Assembly: GCA_934157035.1 (NCBI GenBank) | Contig: CAKPHG010000004.1 | Location: forward strand, 53,594-117,593 | Length of the DNA stretch: 64,000 bases | Direction: 5' to 3' | Source of the DNA: an uncultured Clostridia bacterium | GTDB lineage: Bacteria; Bacillota; Clostridia; TANB77; CAG-508 | In this document: positions 44,986 through 62,496 of the stretch, in pieces | How the letters are laid out: each line of letters starts with the position of its first letter | Numbering within the stretch: position 1 is the first letter of the stretch | Program-made: the position numbers and the translations under genes | The notes under the pieces: model-generated | Told to the model about the DNA's origin: nothing | Databases searched by the model: none | Seen by the model: the letters and a program-made list of their open reading frames with translations, nothing else

Positions 44986-46397
44986 TTAATTATTATCTGT
45001 TAATTTATTAAACAAATCCTTAAATATTTCGTTTGCATTTAAATAATTAACAAATTTAATTCTATGCCTGTTTTCGGTTAGTTTAAAAGTATTATCAGTA
45101 TTTATAAGTGGACAACTAACATCCATTGTATTAAACCAATTTTTATTTATCATATATGCTATTACACTAATATCCCATAGTGGCCATCTTTTAGTAGGAC
45201 CATAGGCTCTATTATAAAATCTATAGCATAAATAATCACATAATTCGTTTTTGCCTTTTAATTCACTTTCTAATTCGTATATTGATGTCATTAGATTCGA
45301 TGTTATAGGAGAACAAGGCATAACAGTAAGTTTAACTTTCGATTCAAAAACTACTTTTACCGCTTCTACATCTTGATCAAAATTGAAATCTTTATTAGGT
45401 CCAAATAAAAAATTACTTCCTAACCATATAATTTCTATCTTATCAACAATATCTGGGTTAGATTTTAATGCTAATGCTATATTTGTTAAACACCCTATTG
45501 CTAATATATATGTTTTTTTATTTTTGTTAGCAATTTCAATTATTTTATTAATGGCTGAATTTTTTTCATTATATCCATTTTTTAAATAATCACGGGAACC
45601 TTTATATATAAGTGATTTATCCTTTAATCCTAATAAATCAAATACTTTACATGCTTCATTGTAACTGGCATCTATAGAATCAGAAACTGTTCCTTGCCAT
45701 TTTTCATGTCTAAAAGGTGCTATTGTTATAGCGTCAATGTTGAATATTTCTTTGCTTTTTAGTAAATAAGATAATGCGAATTGGTCATCTGCTTCATTAT
45801 ATGTATCTGTATTCAAAATTACATTATATTTTTTTCACAGATTAAACTATATATTTCTTTCCATCCGTTTACTATTGGAATATTTAAATTATATTTCTCA
45901 TTATATCTTGTTTTCATTAAAAAACATTCTATTCCTGCGTTTAATATGTATTTACATTTATCTGCTTCATCATCAAACATAATATCAATACTATTTTCAA
46001 TACATTCTGGACTTTTATCTCTGCTTTTTGTAAATACTAATTTATCATATTTTATACCTTTTTCATTTAACCAATTTATAGTTACTAATTCATGGTTTTT
46101 AAAAAAATAATTTGATCTGTGTGTTATTAAAAATATCTCATTTTCTTCATATAATTTATTAATATATTTCTTAGCTCCTTCTATTAAATCAAATTTTTCA
46201 GCCATTCTATCCATATTATTGCGGATAAAATCTTCTATTTCCTCTGGGCTCCAATCAAACATTCCTTCAGTAATGTGTTTAGCTTTTTTGTTTATAATTC
46301 CTTTATTTCTTTTATTTTTATCTTCTTTTTCAAATTCTTCTAAAAATGTTTTATCTAAATCTGCTATTACATTATCAATATCTATTCCAATTCTCAT
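44986..46397 (-). pseudogene. 5'(3')-deoxyribonucleotidase-nucleoside hydrolase fusion gene interrupted by a -1/+1 frameshift in an A7 tract (ORFs 45819..46397 and 44986..45816)
   Basis: Upstream ORF = HAD dNT (MRIGIDIDNV...). Downstream ORF = IU-nucleoside hydrolase starting in mid-motif (NTDTYNEADDQFAL). The intact paralog 54834..56264 reads through the same junction (…KNYKKEKFNVILDTDTYNECDD). The shifted frame across plus 45829..45835 (T7) reconstructs KKYNVILNTDTYNE. Confidence 0.7.
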
Positions 46398-46579
46398 ATA
46401 ACAACCTCCAGTATAAAATTAAGTTTTAATCTATAAAAATTATACATTATATTACAATTTTTTTCCACACTTCCTTGAAAAAATCAGCATGAGTATTTCT
46501 ATATAGGTAATTTAGCAAATAAAATACCACTCCTAATACTTCAAACACATAATACAACTTATTTTAAACCTCTTTTTTA

Positions 46580-46608
46580 TTTACATAATAGCCAAAATGT
46601 GGTATAAT
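46580..46608 (+). promoter_or_regulatory. promoter TTTACA-17-TGgTATAAT (extended -10) for the GC-rich orphan gene
   Basis: TTTACA 46580..46585, TATAAT 46603..46608, TG at -15/-14. Shares AAAATGTGGTAyAAT with promoters at 61191..61219 and 60742..60770. Confidence 0.5.
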
Positions 46609-46695
46609 ATTTTTGGTTGATTTCTCAGAAAATGAGGAAAAATTTCTTAGTTAGTATTTGTTGCATTATAATTAAAGCATAAGGAGGAAAACAAT

Positions 46696-47748
46696 ATGCA
46701 ATATCAAGAAAGCGTCAGAATTCAAAGATGTGGTAACCGTGCAGGAGATACCTATGGACTGATTGAACTTCAACATATGGCAGATCCTAAATCAGTAATT
46801 GTGTCTCTTTGTGGGCAAAGGCTTTATCCGAAAAAATTCAATATCTTCGGTTGGCCGATATTTACAAAGGAAATCTGTGACCTTTTTGACTGGAAAGAGA
46901 ACTCTCTTGAAAGAATATATGGAAAAGATTACAGACTTACAGCATTAGTTACGTATGATAGTGCAAATGTCCACATCGACCCGCATGCAGTTAATTCTTT
47001 GGATGGAATTAAAAACGGAATCAAAGACCTTGAGTCTTTGAATAGATTACTCAGAGATAGAGTGATTTATGATAAGCTTTTAGGTAGGGGCAAACTCAAC
47101 AAGTATGTTATTTTTGGTAGATATAGCCTTGATGAATTTGCCCAGGTATGGACACTGGGTGAGCAATATGAAATCCCTGAAATGCCTATCGTTTGTACTC
47201 AAATCGGGTTCTATAGAGCTTACAATAAAGTAAAGCCTGATGCACTTGTATCTTGGGAAGGCAGATGCACTATTCCTTCTGAAGATGATAGTTGTCCTTG
47301 GTGTACCAAAAAATTTACTATTGAAGATGTAAGAAAAGGAAGATTTGACACTATCAATGGTAAAGTCGCCCATAGCGAATGTGCAAAGCAGTATGAACAT
47401 GAAAGGGAGATTAACAAAATTATTCATCGAATTATGGAATTTATCTATGAAGATGGATTAACCTTTGAACTTCTTCCTAATGGCTATTGTAGTCAACCGT
47501 GTTATGCTCATAAGCCTTGGTTTTTGTGTCATACTCCTGATGGTGACATCGAAATCGGCTGGAGAAAAAGAGTTATTTCTATTGAATGGAAAGATAATTT
47601 CAAACCTTTCGATATGAGTATTTTTGACAGCGAAGATGTTACTAAATGGGAGCGTGGCATTCACGCGTGGGGAAATGACAAAGCATATGAGTATATTAAA
47701 AAGGTAAAGGAATTTGTTAATCCTAAACCTGAAGAGAAAAAATCGTAA
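46696..47748 (+). CDS. hypothetical 350-aa protein, compositionally foreign (~40 % GC), with CxxC...HxxC putative zinc-binding element
   Basis: Strong AAGGAGG RBS; GC visibly higher than flanks; CPWC(x29)HSEC and further conserved Cys/His; no family recognised; own GC-rich hairpin terminator. Confidence 0.6.
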   Translation: MQYQESVRIQRCGNRAGDTYGLIELQHMADPKSVIVSLCGQRLYPKKFNIFGWPIFTKEICDLFDWKENSLERIYGKDYRLTALVTYDSANVHIDPHAVNSLDGIKNGIKDLESLNRLLRDRVIYDKLLGRGKLNKYVIFGRYSLDEFAQVWTLGEQYEIPEMPIVCTQIGFYRAYNKVKPDALVSWEGRCTIPSEDDSCPWCTKKFTIEDVRKGRFDTINGKVAHSECAKQYEHEREINKIIHRIMEFIYEDGLTFELLPNGYCSQPCYAHKPWFLCHTPDGDIEIGWRKRVISIEWKDNFKPFDMSIFDSEDVTKWERGIHAWGNDKAYEYIKKVKEFVNPKPEEKKS

Positions 47749-47775
47749 AAGCAACATTACTAAGAAATTCAGCTG

Positions 47776-47820
47776 AAAAAGGCCACTAGATAATTCTAGT
47801 GGCCTTGACCTTTGGTTTTA
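47776..47820 (+). terminator. GC-rich hairpin terminator (GGCCACTAGA-taat-TCTAGTGGCC)
   Basis: Perfect 10-bp GC-rich stem at 47781..47804 directly after the stop of 46696..47748. Confidence 0.55.
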
Positions 47821-53548: not shown

Positions 53549-53689
53549 AATATTCCCCTCCTTTTTCTTATAATGATATATTCATCATTTCTATTTAAAG
53601 TATAGTATAATTGGCATTTAATTAAAAGAAAAATTACCAAATAATCACTGACAATTTGGTAATTTGTGTAAGTATTTTAATTTTAAATT

Positions 53690-54833: not shown

Positions 54834-56264
54834 TTACTCTCCTAATTTTTCAAATAAATCATTATAAACACTATTTGCATCTATATAAGTTACCATTGTT
54901 ATATTATGCCTATTAGTTGTTATTTTATATGATGTATCTTCTTTTATATTTGGACAATTTATATCTTTACTTGTAAACCATTTTTTATTTATCATATAAG
55001 CAATTACAGAAATATCCCATATAATTCTTCTTTCTTGATTTCCATGATAGCTATCGTTATAAAATCTACTTATTAAATAGTTGCATAGTTCACTTTTATC
55101 TTTCAAGTGATGATTTAATTCATATATTGATGTTCGTAAATTAGATGCTACATTTTTGCAAGGTATTACTGTTAATTTTACTTTAGACTCAAATACTGTT
55201 CTTACTGCTTCAACATCTTGTCTAAAATTGAATTCTCTATTATTATCTTGTAATAAGCTATGTCCGCCTAGCCAAATTACTTCTATTTTTTCAATTATTT
55301 TAGGCTCTTTCTTTATTGCTAGCGCAATATTCGTAATTGCCCCAACTGCTAATATATATGTTTTTTCATTTTTTAATGCTATTTCAATTATTTTATTAAC
55401 CGCTTCATTTTCTTCATTATATCCATTTTGCAAATAATCTGTTGAACCTTTAAATACTTTATCTGTTGTATCAAAATTTAACCAATTACATATTTTTAAT
55501 ATTTCATTATAGCTTAATTCTTGGCTTTCCTCAGTAGTCACATTTTTTACTTTATGCGAAAATGGTGCAACTGTAATTGCTTCTATATTAAATACATCTT
55601 GTGATTTTAACATATATGAAAGTGCAAATTGATCGTCACATTCGTTATATGTATCTGTATCTAAAATTACATTGAACTTTTCTTTTTTATAATTTTTAAT
55701 GTACTCATATATTTCTTTCCAATCTTTAACTCTAGTTAAGTTTTCTTCTTCTCTATTGTAAGGCTTGTCCTTTATAAGTGTAGTTATTCCGCTTTCTACA
55801 CAATTTTTACAAATGCTAATTGAATCATCTATCATTACTTCTATATTATTTTCAATACATTTTTTAGATTTTTGCATTTTGTCACGAGCATCTGTAAAAA
55901 TTAGTTTATCATAATATATATTATTTTCTTGTAGCCATTCTTTTGTCATATTATAAGGATCTGAATAATCTCCATTATCTCTTCCAGTAATTATATATAT
56001 GTTATGACCATCTTCTTTTAGTTTATCTATATATTCTTTTGCTCCTTCAATTACTTTTAAGTTTTTAACGATTCTTTCTATATTTTCTTTATAAAATGTT
56101 TCATCTTCCTCTTTGCTCCAGTCAAACATACCATTTCTGATATATTTAGCATTTGGATTTATTATTCCACTATTTCTTAATTCTTTATCATGTTCTATAT
56201 ATTCCTTTAATAGTTCTTCATCAAAATTTGAAATAACGTTATCTATATCTATTCCTATGTTCAT
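54834..56264 (-). CDS. intact fusion: N-terminal HAD 5'(3')-deoxyribonucleotidase + C-terminal inosine-uridine-type nucleoside hydrolase
   Basis: N-term MNIGIDIDNV (HAD motif I), NT5C-like body; C-term ILDTDTYNECDDQFAL (nucleoside hydrolase DxDxxxDD Ca2+ motif) and IUNH-like remainder. 3 nt from next gene (operon). Confidence 0.8.
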   Translation of the reverse strand: MNIGIDIDNVISNFDEELLKEYIEHDKELRNSGIINPNAKYIRNGMFDWSKEEDETFYKENIERIVKNLKVIEGAKEYIDKLKEDGHNIYIITGRDNGDYSDPYNMTKEWLQENNIYYDKLIFTDARDKMQKSKKCIENNIEVMIDDSISICKNCVESGITTLIKDKPYNREEENLTRVKDWKEIYEYIKNYKKEKFNVILDTDTYNECDDQFALSYMLKSQDVFNIEAITVAPFSHKVKNVTTEESQELSYNEILKICNWLNFDTTDKVFKGSTDYLQNGYNEENEAVNKIIEIALKNEKTYILAVGAITNIALAIKKEPKIIEKIEVIWLGGHSLLQDNNREFNFRQDVEAVRTVFESKVKLTVIPCKNVASNLRTSIYELNHHLKDKSELCNYLISRFYNDSYHGNQERRIIWDISVIAYMINKKWFTSKDINCPNIKEDTSYKITTNRHNITMVTYIDANSVYNDLFEKLGE

Positions 56265-59882: not shown

Positions 59883-59965
59883 GCTGATGTGGCGGAACTG
59901 GCAGACGCACTGGACTCAAAATCCAGCGGGAAACCATGTGGGTTCGAGTCCCACCATCAGCACCA
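59883..59965 (+). tRNA. tRNA-Leu (anticodon CAA)
   Basis: GCTGATG acceptor, GGCGGAACTGGCAGACGC D-arm, anticodon loop CUCAAAA, long variable arm, TTCGAGT T-loop, CCA encoded; terminator hairpin at 59998..60030. Confidence 0.85.
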
Positions 59966-60168
59966 ATGACATTTTTGTTCGAACTACATATACAAAAATC
60001 AATCATTAAAATGGTTGATTTTTTTGTTTTTAAAAAATTATATGTTTTGTCAGTGTGTATTGCCTTGTAGCGCCCATAAGTTATGATAGTATGTCATACT
60101 TAAACAAATAGAGTGTCCTAAAATTGGACACTCTATTTACCTCTGGCTTATTGCTAGAGATGAAACGA

Positions 60169-60678
60169 TTACTGAAATAACTCTTTAAACTCTTCTTCTG
60201 TCATTCCGACAGGTAATTTTGAATCGCTCGTCGGGTACTCTGTGATTGGCTGTGCTACCCCATTTGTATCATCTTTTGCTTGGTATAAGCGAACGATAGA
60301 TACATGGAATCCCGCGTTGAATTCAGCGTTGAATGTGCTGTTCATTGCTATGGCTCCATCAATGATTTCAAAGGCCACAACCTTCTTAAGATGCTCTTTC
60401 GGAATCTGCCGAATCACTTCGCCTACGCTAGGCTTAAAGAAACCATAGTATCCATAACCATGAAGCATTTTTCTGTCTTCTAATACTGACAGCTTGGAAA
60501 AATCAACTTTGTCTGCATAATCTGAGGGCTCATTAAGCCATGTATATGCACTACCAGTTAATTCATCAGCGGACAATCCTCTGAGATAGGTATCATGTCC
60601 GACGATGGGTTTGATGGTTGCGTACCAGCGAGCGATTTCCTCATTGCTCATTTTAGGAATTTCAAATTTCCGTTCCAT
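60169..60678 (-). CDS. hypothetical 169-aa protein, compositionally foreign (~42 % GC)
   Basis: AAGGAGG RBS; GC-rich relative to flanks; own promoter (60742..60770, TTGAAA-17-TATACT) and hairpin terminator (60107..60140); no family recognised. Confidence 0.55.
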   Translation of the reverse strand: MERKFEIPKMSNEEIARWYATIKPIVGHDTYLRGLSADELTGSAYTWLNEPSDYADKVDFSKLSVLEDRKMLHGYGYYGFFKPSVGEVIRQIPKEHLKKVVAFEIIDGAIAMNSTFNAEFNAGFHVSIVRLYQAKDDTNGVAQPITEYPTSDSKLPVGMTEEEFKELFQ

Positions 60679-61190
60679 ATTTTACCTCCTTGCAATCGCA
60701 AATGTTAATTTACTACTGATATTCTTGTGAACATCAATAATAGTATACCTTATTTTACATAATATTTCAACTTATTTATAATATTTTCCAAATAGTATTA
60801 CATTATAATAAAAATATGTTATAATTTTATTAACTTGATCGATATTTGTATCAATAGTTATGAGAGACCAAAAGTTGTAGATAATTACTTCGACGGCACC
60901 AAAGGATAATATCGTCGCACCAGACGAGAAAAACGATTAAATCGACTGTAAAAGGTCGATTTTTTTCGTACCTAAGTATTAAAATTTTCGGAAAGATGTG
61001 ATATTATGTTAAACACAATCAAGAAACAAATCAATATTAGTAAAGAACTAAATTTTTAAATCTCCTTAACTATAAACATTTACTTATGACATCTGCACAA
61101 GTAATGGAACTAACTGAAAAAGAACAAAATATTTTTGTATTTGAAGTATTATATAATATTTACAATAGCATGAAAGAAATTTTTTGAAAG

Positions 61191-61219
61191 TTGCAATTTT
61201 ATGTAAAATGTGGTACAAT
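61191..61219 (+). promoter_or_regulatory. promoter TTGCAA-17-TGgTACAAT for 61366..61800
   Basis: TTGCAA 61191..61196, TACAAT 61214..61219, TG extension; shares ATGTAAAATGTGGTAyAAT core with the other GC-rich cassettes. Confidence 0.5.
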
Positions 61220-61365
61220 AAATATGTAAAAAGTTTTTCTTTTAAATTGAGAATATTTTCTCGATTTATTTGCTACATTATAGGTGGCAAGAAATCAAGA
61301 GTATCTCATTGAAGGGAAAATAGTAAAACAAAAACAATAAAAACAATTTACAGGAGGATTTTACT

Positions 61366-61800
61366 ATGAAAGCATTTGAAACACGGAAAGCATCTGTTAA
61401 GCCACAGTATGATTCAGCAATGAAAGAAATTAGCCAGGCAATGAATTGGGGATGGAAAAGTACCCATGTAGGTAATGGAACTCTGTACCCTGAAGTTGCA
61501 GAAATGATTGCTAAGGACGGTTTTGATATCAAAATTGTCAAAAGAGCTGATGACACTATGTCATATAATGAGATTTCTTGGGAAAATGCAGAAGAAGGTA
61601 AGGAGGGAACTATTACTTATGTAGATGAAACTCAGCTTAAGCTTGATCCTGCAGATATCCTTGATCCTGCAGATATCCTTGATCCTGCAGATATCTTTGT
61701 AAGAATTCTTGGACTCAAAAGAGAGGAAGCTACTGAGTCAAAAGAAGACGAACATCCAAACAATGAAGAAAATAAAACCGATTCTGAAGCCGAAGAATAA
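61366..61800 (+). CDS. hypothetical 144-aa acidic protein, compositionally foreign, containing a 3x DPADIL tandem repeat
   Basis: AGGAGG RBS; higher GC than flanks; internal 3 x 18-nt tandem repeat; strong hairpin terminator 61822..61860. Confidence 0.55.
   Translation: MKAFETRKASVKPQYDSAMKEISQAMNWGWKSTHVGNGTLYPEVAEMIAKDGFDIKIVKRADDTMSYNEISWENAEEGKEGTITYVDETQLKLDPADILDPADILDPADIFVRILGLKREEATESKEDEHPNNEENKTDSEAEE
61645..61698 (+). repeat. 3 x 18-nt tandem direct repeat (GATCCTGCAGATATCCTT) within CDS, encoding DPADIL x3
   Basis: Units at 61645..61662, 61663..61680, 61681..61698 (last with one substitution). Confidence 0.9.
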
Positions 61801-62109
61801 GGCGAACACAATGTGAAACTCTTGGAGAGAGCTAGTATCAAACTAGTTCTCTCTTTTTTTATCATTTTATTAAAAACACTTTTTTTAATTATATGTTAAA
61901 ATGTATATATAGTCGATAATCGTAAAGGTTTCAAGTGTGGAAGTTAGTAAATATCAAATTAATTAGCCTTGCAGAGCATACTAGTTATATAAAAACTTAA
62001 CCTGAAAAAGCGAAAAAAACTTGAAAAATCGTCAAACTTCTGATATCATTACAATGTTAACCAGTAAAATTAAAAAAGCAAAACTTTGAATAAGGAGGTG
62101 CTTAATCAA

Positions 62110-62418
62110 ATGTATGAAATTTGTAAGTACGAGAACATCAAACTGGAAGAAGCAATGACAATGGACCTCACTCAAAGAGTTCGGCTATGGGTTCTTCAAG
62201 GTTTCTCTGTTCAAGCTAATGACATTCCAAAGAAAGCTAATGTTCAAGCAACTTATGTCTATCAGTCCTCTGAAGGTCATATTTCTCTGATGATTAAGTG
62301 GACTATTGAGGGAGATTTTAGCCTCTATTTTGGTATTGTTGATGAATTCATCACTTTAGAGGAGCTAAAAGACAAATTTCCCAAACTTTTTGAGTTTGAA
62401 GGAAATTTGTATGCCTAA
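62110..62418 (+). CDS. hypothetical ~100-aa protein, compositionally foreign
   Basis: AAGGAGG at 62092..62098 with ATG 62110 (ORF track's 62086 is a TTG inside the RBS); higher GC than flanks; bidirectional hairpin terminator 62437..62466. Confidence 0.5.
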   Translation: MYEICKYENIKLEEAMTMDLTQRVRLWVLQGFSVQANDIPKKANVQATYVYQSSEGHISLMIKWTIEGDFSLYFGIVDEFITLEELKDKFPKLFEFEGNLYA

Positions 62419-62496
62419 TTGAACACAAAAAGTCTCTTTTTGAAAACACAGATAGAATATTTTCTATCTGTGTTTTTCATATTTAATATTCATTTT

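Follow-up and report, generated by a model that had tools for sequence, protein, structure and literature searches.

Genes between tRNA-Leu(CAA) and pgi of an uncultured Clostridia bacterium as probable remnants of one family of small integrative mobilizable elements

Genes and expression signals of the interval

The DNA considered here is a 64,000-nucleotide stretch of contig CAKPHG010000004.1 (GCA_934157035.1, positions 53,594 to 117,593) from an uncultured Clostridia bacterium, hereafter called the window. Three small orphan genes, designated A, B and C, are situated between tRNA-Leu(CAA) and pgi, and a fourth, D, lies near 46.7 kb. Based upon sequence comparisons we regard it as very probable that the interval was shaped by repeated integration, followed by decay, of small integrative mobilizable elements (IMEs) from one family. 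The open reading frames (ORFs) of A to C have the coordinates given in an earlier note on this DNA. The principal features of the interval are:

59883..59965 (+): tRNA-Leu(CAA) (ARAGORN; Rfam tRNA, 60.5 bits), the 3' end of which, ...GCACCA, is the presumed attachment site (attB/attL side)
60106..60138 (-): terminator hairpin of A, an inverted repeat with 13-bp perfect arms
60169..60678 (-): putative cargo gene A, 169 aa, acidic, isoelectric point (pI) 5.1
60770-60742 (-): promoter of A, TTGAAAtattATGTAAAATAAGGTATACT, of the signature type
61191-61219 (+): promoter of B, TTGCAAttttATGTAAAATGTGGTACAAT, the signature cargo promoter, 4 bp past the stop of a p107 remnant
61366..61800 (+): putative cargo gene B, 144 aa, acidic, pI 4.4
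61824..61854 (+): terminator of B, hairpin and T-run
62021..62477 (+): cassette C, that is promoter, coding sequence and terminator (ORF list and promoter/terminator scan)
62021-62049 (+): promoter of C, without the signature core
62110..62418 (+): putative cargo gene C, 102 aa, acidic, pI 4.7; an alternative longer ORF has a TTG start at 62086
62442-62477 (+): terminator of C, hairpin and T-run

The GC content of the window is about 26% and that of the flanks of A–C about 0.26, against 0.42, 0.38 and 0.36 for A, B and C, respectively. At third codon positions (GC3) the values for A, B, C and D are 0.40, 0.25, 0.35 and 0.30, while the median for 59 window ORFs is 0.135 and the highest value outside these four genes is 0.23. 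An AGGAGG-type Shine-Dalgarno sequence, read directly from the DNA, precedes each of A, B and C, and each has a sigma-70-like promoter and a terminator composed of a hairpin and a T-run. The interval between the tRNA and pgi contains six terminator-like sites where 0.8 would be expected, and the hairpin of the gene A terminator is kept, with compensatory changes, in L010–L013 (loci used for comparison bear L numbers). Searches of Pfam, PHROG, NCBIfam and PADLOC (the last at E <= 1) gave no match to A, B or C. The profiles of the A and B families, when compared with PDB sequences, matched nothing but noise, for instance designed repeat proteins; the A product has a confidently predicted fold with no PDB match. 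In an Rfam scan of the interval nothing beyond the tRNA was detected at gathering or E-value thresholds. The earlier note had described A, B and C as richer in GC than their flanks, as each equipped with its own promoter, AGGAGG ribosome-binding site and terminator, and as belonging to no recognised family; on all three points it was correct.

The promoters of D, A and B share a core, ATGTAAAATNTGGTATAAT / ATGTAAAATnTGGTATAAT. With up to three mismatches allowed, the window contains four copies of it (0.84 expected), a number reached in none of 100 shuffles. Three of the matches, at 46590, 60742 (minus strand) and 61201, are upstream of D, A and B. The other, ATTTAAAGTATAGTATAAT at 53593–53611 (+), is situated between minus-strand genes, has three mismatches and is probably fortuitous. 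The same type of promoter is found directly after the stop codon of p107, a gene recurrent in the elements described below, in the independent elements L096, L101, L149 and L173. Furthermore, over the 1.8 kb that precede the element right ends a regular expression describing this promoter reaches a density about 11 times that of the other parts of the fetched loci. Since the same promoter follows p107 in independent elements we ascribe the similarity to common descent, and the shared core would be the conserved cargo promoter of one mobile-element family. The earlier note had assigned the core exclusively to three of the four orphan promoters, and the C promoter indeed lacks it. The similarity also exceeds chance, and we explain it by inheritance within an element family. 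Co-regulation through the shared promoter, as suggested in that note, is possible. A sporulation-sigma reading of the core was rejected on spacing and on comparison with the sigma-F/G/E/K consensus sequences.

The region upstream of A contains a further conserved feature:

60679..60770 (-): leader and signature promoter of A, with the promoter at 60742-60770, a 5' hairpin at 60713-60737, and TTGC-N4-GCAA abutting GGAGG at 60685-60701

Between species whose A proteins are as little as about 60% identical, the stretch of this leader that runs from the -35 box as far as the ATG is conserved. In the A-family loci L010–L020 the TTGC-N4-GCAA palindrome is invariant and stands directly beside GGAGG; the sequence of the 5'-proximal hairpin varies by species. 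The palindrome may serve as an operator in translation or influence the stability of the mRNA. A cargo gene of L101 that is unrelated to A carries TTACAATTGTAAGGAGG, which can be compared with this palindrome.

The 929-bp insertion and its element family

Gene A is contained in an insertion which is missing in L026 and L027, two loci of one strain. Its parts are interpreted as follows:

59960..59966 (+): left direct repeat GCACCA(A), identical to the tRNA end; 7-bp overlap of the BLAST alignments against L026/L027
59967..60895 (no strand): 929-bp insertion missing in L026/L027, a putative backbone-less miniature IME resembling a cis-mobilizable element (CIME)
59966..60035 (+): left end of the IME, ATGACATTTTTGTTCGAACTAC, then a terminator-like hairpin (inverted repeat AAAAATCAATCA..TGGTTGATTTTTTT)
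60784..60902 (+): right-end module with an outward promoter at 60797-60825, inverted repeat TTGATcGATAtttgTATCaA, core AAAGTTGTAGATAAtTAC and tail TTCGACGGCACCA (attR side)
60904..60966 (+): probable scar of earlier integrations, GGATAATATCGTCGCACCA (truncated module tail), then GACGAG... (second left-end type); hairpin at 60939-60962

In the strain without 59967–60895 the left flank is 99.6% identical to the window, and the right flank is approximately 100% identical apart from the copy number of a repeat in B and the C cassette; L026 and L027 have B and C but lack A. At the empty site of L027 the sequence is tRNA..GCACCAAaggataat, and the alignments of the window with L026/L027 overlap by GCACCAA, the 7 bases ending the tRNA. 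A long repeat of the tRNA 3' end serving as att site is not present in the window; the repeat amounts to only 6–7 bp and was revealed only via comparison with the empty site. In another genome (L118) the A element follows tRNA-Leu(TAG) amid unrelated surroundings, the A protein being 95% identical to that of the window. The ends of that element equal those of the window copy (first ATGACG..., last ...TTCGACGGCACCA), with a 6-bp repeat, GCACCA. The mini-element is thus found in two independent insertion sites, tRNA-Leu CAA and TAG, which argues that it has either moved after miniaturisation or been miniaturised twice.

In a sister species (L010) the transcription unit of A (60098–60786) is 96.2% identical at the nucleotide level, as compared with 83% for pgi and a deacetylase gene. 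Synonymous divergence (dS) between the window and L010 is 0.039 for A, 0.87 for pgi and 1.08 for the deacetylase, i.e. about 20-fold lower for A. A different orphan, of 112 aa, occupies the place of B and C in L010. Between 6660 and 6910 of this locus part of the tRNA-Leu 3' end is repeated, ..ggtcccaccatcagcaccaa, some 140 bp from the intact tRNA-Leu, and the duplicated end adjoins gene A and a 23-aa p107-like stump. We take this as a sign of tandem integrations at one site. Judging from these comparisons the A element arrived recently and is polymorphic among strains. The earlier note had postulated an integration hotspot beside the tRNA, and had proposed a comparison of tRNA-Leu to pgi across strains. 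The interval proved polymorphic, with A present or absent between strains whose flanks are 99.6–100% identical and another orphan in L010, so that the hotspot reading is supported.

The right-end module, the last ~100 bp of the A insertion, recurs in other loci, at times twice in one locus. Its most conserved 18-mer matched more than 120 metagenome loci, about 100 of which are true copies. Every copy of the module includes a promoter (..TATGATATACT), an inverted repeat, a core that hardly varies, AAAGTTGTAGATAAYTAC, and a tail of 13 nt with NCCA at its end. In 20 loci the tail equals the last 5–10 nt of a tRNA encoded on the same strand 0.7–7 kb upstream: ..CACCA with Leu, Tyr, Thr, Arg and Glu; ..GCTCCA with Gly and Thr; ..AGCCA with Gln. 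In the module loci a left end, ATGACGTTTCTGTTCGAACTA.., occurs immediately after the tRNA and is followed by a terminator-like hairpin, as it is at 59966–60035 of the window. At least 15 other loci have a near-identical left end after the CCA of tRNA-Gln, Tyr, Thr, Glu, Gly or Leu. Modules joined to left ends were seen in L011, L059, L064 and L115, where a circle is indistinguishable from tandem copies. The junction at 60904–60928 of the window (GGATAATATCGTCGCACCA, then GACGAG) resembles junctions in L100, L110, L131 and L152, the last three of which show the second left-end type, and 60904..60966 is probably the scar of still earlier events.

Three IMG/VR contigs (L048, L049 and L051) also contain true module copies, L048 in addition to p107, recombinase fragments and a GC-rich cargo ORF. 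These are either elements misclassified as viral or elements residing in prophage-containing contigs. A match of the module to a Cas12a repeat (GTTGTAGAT) was considered coincidental, the hairpin partner being on the wrong side.

Between the two ends there are recurrent ORF clusters: p116, a serine recombinase, a MobV relaxase and p107. The recombinase (~610–642 aa) possesses the Pfam Resolvase and Recombinase domains (E = 7.5e-24 and 1.2e-18), and a Mob_Pre relaxase of ~475 aa (E = 7e-13) is found in 14 loci; p107, which forms cluster 0, has no Pfam match. L098, located at a tRNA-Gln, is a complete 6.9-kb copy specifying a 642-aa recombinase, and VirB4 and coupling protein are absent from it; no oriT was located. 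The full element is ~5–7 kb, and its order is left end, p116, large serine recombinase, MobV relaxase, p107, cargo promoter, cargo and ~100-bp right-end module. The family has the following attributes of an IME: its own recombinase, a relaxase without a conjugation pore, and a specific site with short direct repeats; the copies in the window depart from this definition in that the recombinase gene has been deleted. As expected of a CIME, the A unit has kept both ends, has A as its sole gene and has no recombination or transfer genes.

The following scheme could account for these arrangements. The recombinase would integrate the circular form of the element precisely at the 3' side of a tRNA gene's CCA, leaving the tRNA intact and making the short direct repeat. 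The attP site of the circle would be composed of the module tail and the left end, and would recombine with the tRNA 3' end. At the circle junction ..TTCGACGGCACCA would be joined to ATGACATTT.. or, in general form, ..GTAGATAACTAC-N7-NCCA to ATGACGTTTCTGTTCGAAC. The MobV relaxase would permit transfer by a helper conjugative element, and copies without a backbone would depend upon a resident full copy, moving in trans. Recombinase catalysis, movement in trans and helper transfer we infer from knowledge of large serine recombinases and MobV elements. A would be the cargo of a 929-bp derivative which has kept both ends and lost recombinase, relaxase and p107, that is, a cis-mobilizable mini-element. 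B and C would be the cargo of an older copy reduced to a p107 stump, cargo promoter and cargo, and D a third such remnant. The cassettes A–D would then be residues of serine-recombinase/MobV elements with a deleted backbone, rather than free-standing units collected singly, and their foreign GC content would be explained by cargo travelling with the elements. Transcription from the module's outward promoter would extend over the circle junction, and this promoter could serve the recombinase gene in the circle, comparably to Tn4451. This role is uncertain because a terminator-like hairpin separates the junction from that gene.

Genes B, C and D as probable remnants

Two further features bear on the remaining cassettes:

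61044..61187 (+): putative p107 pseudogene remnant, C-terminal part (tblastn of p107, E = 1.7e-4 at 61044-61130; 33-aa ORF at 61086-61187)
46523..47806 (+): cassette D, with the last ~10 codons of p107 at 46523-46552, promoter TTTACA..AAAATGTGGTATAAT at 46580-46608, coding sequence at 46696-47748 (350 aa) and terminator at 47776-47806

Because they follow the p107 pseudogene remnant, B and C are assigned to an older, decayed copy. Peptides related to p107 also occur beside gene A in L010 and L012. The N-terminal ~90 residues of B form a conserved alpha/beta domain belonging to a family of 93 representative clusters. Its C-terminal part is a disordered acidic tail with an 18-bp tandem repeat (61642–61699) encoding DPADIL, which is present in three copies in the window, two in L001-type strains (138-aa product) and one in L027.

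Gene C has only six homologue clusters. Relative to L027, 61950–62395 (C promoter and coding sequence, not the terminator) is the sole diverged stretch, at 84–90% nucleotide identity with a dN/dS of about 1.3, and the C proteins of these two strains, which are otherwise ~100% identical over 3 kb, share 76% identity. This could be due to diversifying selection, relaxed constraint, or replacement by a divergent allele through recombination. In L030 a homologue of C is framed by a full module copy, which has a degenerate left end, and by a short piece of module tail, ttcgacggcaccaat; after the latter come a signature promoter and another orphan. The whole of this 4.4-kb contig (1–4374) is a dense array of element remnants, with two full modules, one short tail, the C homologue, a 191-aa orphan preceded by the signature promoter and several small ORFs.

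The D cassette is 99.7% identical in L182 from 46523 onward, and because L182 has an intact p107 C-terminus upstream of it, we conclude that the window retains only the last ~10 p107 codons. D has 139 homologues, all hypothetical. All contigs with the downstream neighbour of D carry D as well, and only in L182 does the upstream sequence differ. These contigs (L178–L185, corresponding to 46.5–48.5 kb of the window) are all less than 10 kb and end near D, which points to a D cassette that occurs repeatedly in those communities and causes assemblies to break.

Competing explanations, related systems and possible functions

Several points weigh against the IME account, in spite of the high probability that we give it. 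Formally, the L027 lineage could have lost A by deletion across two copies of GCACCA; this would still need an earlier insertion at the CCA end. A tblastn search of the 64-kb window gave no recombinase, relaxase or conjugative machinery, and for this reason the mobility of the mini-element in this strain is only presumed. The targeting of tRNA CCA ends is itself atypical, because site-specific serine-recombinase IMEs usually reside inside protein-coding genes, tRNA ends being used by tyrosine integrases (PMC5704250). GC-rich cargo is not universal, that of the complete copy L098 being AT-rich. L182 may be a chimeric metagenome assembly across the repeated D cassette. Lastly, no right-end module follows C or D. 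What assigns these two to the family is therefore the p107 stumps, the promoter and, in L030, a C homologue between module pieces; for C the evidence is weaker.

Two other types of mobile unit, each with little probability in our estimation, might be put in place of serine-recombinase elements. The first is a non-autonomous IS200/IS605-like (HUH, single-strand) or RNA-guided unit in which the module encodes a guide-like RNA choosing tRNA CCA ends. Insertion 3' of a short specific sequence, an element 3' end resembling its target, subterminal hairpins and an outward promoter whose transcript would cross the junction are all in keeping with this. In addition, the region preceding the core co-varies with the tail (GAGAGCC-GGCACCA, GAGAGGC-GGAGCCA, GAGAG-CGCTCCA), and an IS200-type Y1 transposase ORF occurs near a module in L019. 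However, the gene linked to the ends is consistently a large serine recombinase, not Y1 or TnpB, and the co-variation is explicable by shared ancestry of element lineages. RNAalifold analysis of 76 modules gave only an invariant 4-bp hairpin without covariation or compensatory pairs, wherefore a structured module RNA is not supported, and Rfam too was blank. A tRNA-minihelix-like, guide or bridge-type RNA was accordingly demoted to a minor rival, given also the consistent linkage to a recombinase. The ORF of L019 (6506–7000; HTKWNCKYHIIF..HVHLL, recognized by eye as IS200/IS605-type Y1-like) lies beside a module and a truncated A gene. It prompted the idea of an IS200/IS605 palindrome-associated transposable element (PATE), which was dropped as not recurrent.

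The second of these is that A–C are prophage remnants or phage morons left by a phage integrated at tRNA-Leu. The cassettes are moron-like in anatomy, integration at tRNA 3' ends is classical for phages, some modules have Bro-N proteins nearby, and module copies are present in L048, L049 and L051. Against this, no relative of the A family was found in viral contigs, PHROG is blank for A, B and C, and the backbone specifies a recombinase and a MobV relaxase with no capsid, tail or terminase genes.

A still more doubtful proposition is that A–C are ordinary resident genes, whose odd composition reflects protein constraint or high expression and whose promoters are generic strong sigma-A promoters of an AT-rich genome. 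The interval is syntenic in at least 20 contigs carrying the exact pgi or A protein, A is under purifying selection at larger distances (omega 0.08–0.2), and the promoters are canonical extended -10 promoters. Yet A is missing from near-identical strains, occurs in at least 10 different genomic contexts and has the ~20-fold reduced dS given above, and the promoter core is beyond chance and tracks a mobile-element gene, p107. Residency would survive only if the L026/L027 contigs were misassembled. Least probable of all is an integron-like array, or a cluster of attC sites lacking an integron-integrase (CALIN), with promoterless-type cassettes captured at attI/attC beside the tRNA. The single-gene units and, in some loci (L030), the ~100-bp repeats between cassettes recall one. 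But neither the window nor the element backbone has an IntI tyrosine recombinase, imperfect palindromes of the attC kind with a GTTRRRY core are absent, promoter and terminator are present in every cassette, and what recurs between cassettes is the right end of the IME, which goes with a serine recombinase.

Among named systems the closest to the present serine-recombinase/MobV elements are Tn4451/Tn4453 of C. perfringens and C. difficile (TnpX and TnpZ), which are likewise small Clostridia elements with a large serine recombinase and a Mob_Pre relaxase, excised and integrated by the recombinase with very short repeats. Unlike Tn4451, which has low specificity and a 2-bp crossover (PMC5704250), the present family integrates precisely after the tRNA CCA with 5–10 nt of identity. 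It is therefore not a member of the Tn4451 family as defined by low-specificity GA-dinucleotide targets, and kinship to TnpX/TnpZ is judged by domain architecture only. The cargo of Tn4451 is catP; here it consists of orphan genes behind a dedicated conserved promoter. The Tn4451 circle creates a recombinase promoter at its junction (Lyras and Rood 2000, cited in PMC13023037); the module described here holds a complete promoter, not half of one, and the terminator-like hairpin intervenes before the recombinase gene.

There is ample literature on IMEs, on the CIMEs to which they decay and on tandem accretion at tRNA 3' ends (PMC5704250, PMC12084326). In such systems, for example ICESt1-related islands and IME_Sag2603_tRNAlys, integration and transfer genes have likewise been lost and both att ends kept, and successive integrations at one tRNA end build composite remnants, as in the three-step scenario of PMC5704250. 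These tRNA-end cases use tyrosine integrases, however, and the A unit is exceptionally small, with one gene in under 1 kb, its cis-mobilization being presumed from sequence. With phage morons the cassettes share autonomous promoter-gene-terminator units, a composition unlike the surroundings and a mobile backbone; they differ in being carried by a mobilizable element, in one fixed slot, behind a family-specific promoter. With integron cassettes they share single-gene units, mostly without assigned function, arrayed at a recombination site; they differ in recombinase class, in having no attC and in possessing their own promoters and terminators. Full-text literature searches gave no description of this IME family, its end motifs or its cargo promoter, and a large preprint survey of large serine recombinases does not mention tRNA targets. 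The IME/CIME mechanism class is ordinary; it is the atypical class of target and the fixed cargo slot that set the family apart.

As to the cargo, A has 192 homologues down to ~50% identity, all unnamed or hypothetical and without a Pfam domain. In the species-level genome collection A occurs only in metagenome-assembled genomes of uncultured AT-rich (24–31% GC) Clostridia. Cargo-slot ORFs have a GC3 of 0.27–0.44 as against 0.11–0.22, a host-like value, for the backbone genes recombinase, Mob and p107 (L048, L075, L101, L114, L126, L152 and others), and 43% of them have a pI below 5.5 compared with 23% of other ORFs. The immunity-protein-like arrays that the earlier note had offered as one possibility are neither supported nor refuted: A–C have no toxin partners and no family match, while C has the diversifying-type dN/dS given above. 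The blank PADLOC result is still compatible with an undescribed defence system. Our best guess, with low confidence, is that these small, acidic, strongly promoted and fast-turning-over proteins take part in conflicts, be it with phages, with restriction systems or with competitors, and not in housekeeping. Acidity, strong promoters and divergence would fit accessory conflict genes. A wider proposal, which we consider doubtful, is that this is an undescribed and abundant family of the gut Clostridia in which large serine recombinases are retargeted among many tRNA genes by a match of a few nucleotides between right end and tRNA discriminator-CCA, and in which the fixed, strongly promoted cargo slot shuttles a sizeable pool of GC-rich orphans with new folds, possibly a defence or anti-defence arsenal able to survive in sub-kilobase mini-elements of one gene.

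Decay of one IME family brings four orphans into a single coherent account of what moved, where the ends lie and why the promoters are alike. As markers for such elements in metagenomes of uncultured AT-rich Clostridia one may take the left-end motif ATGACGTTTCTGTTCGAAC, the core of the right end, AAAGTTGTAGATAAYTAC, and the cargo promoter. The cargo slot offers a list of strongly promoted, horizontally traded proteins, one or more of them with an unmatched predicted fold, as candidates for roles in defence, anti-defence or competition. Serine recombinases acting precisely at tRNA CCA ends would have some interest as site-specific integration tools, the more so if a few element nucleotides set the specificity.

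Upstream of D, between it and tRNA-Gly (44986–46397), two adjacent ORFs of 276 and 192 aa bear the Pfam labels IU_nuc_hydro-like and NT5C-like. A single fused NT5C and IU_nuc_hydro gene of 476 aa at 54834–56264 parallels this pair, and its counterpart in L026 is split.

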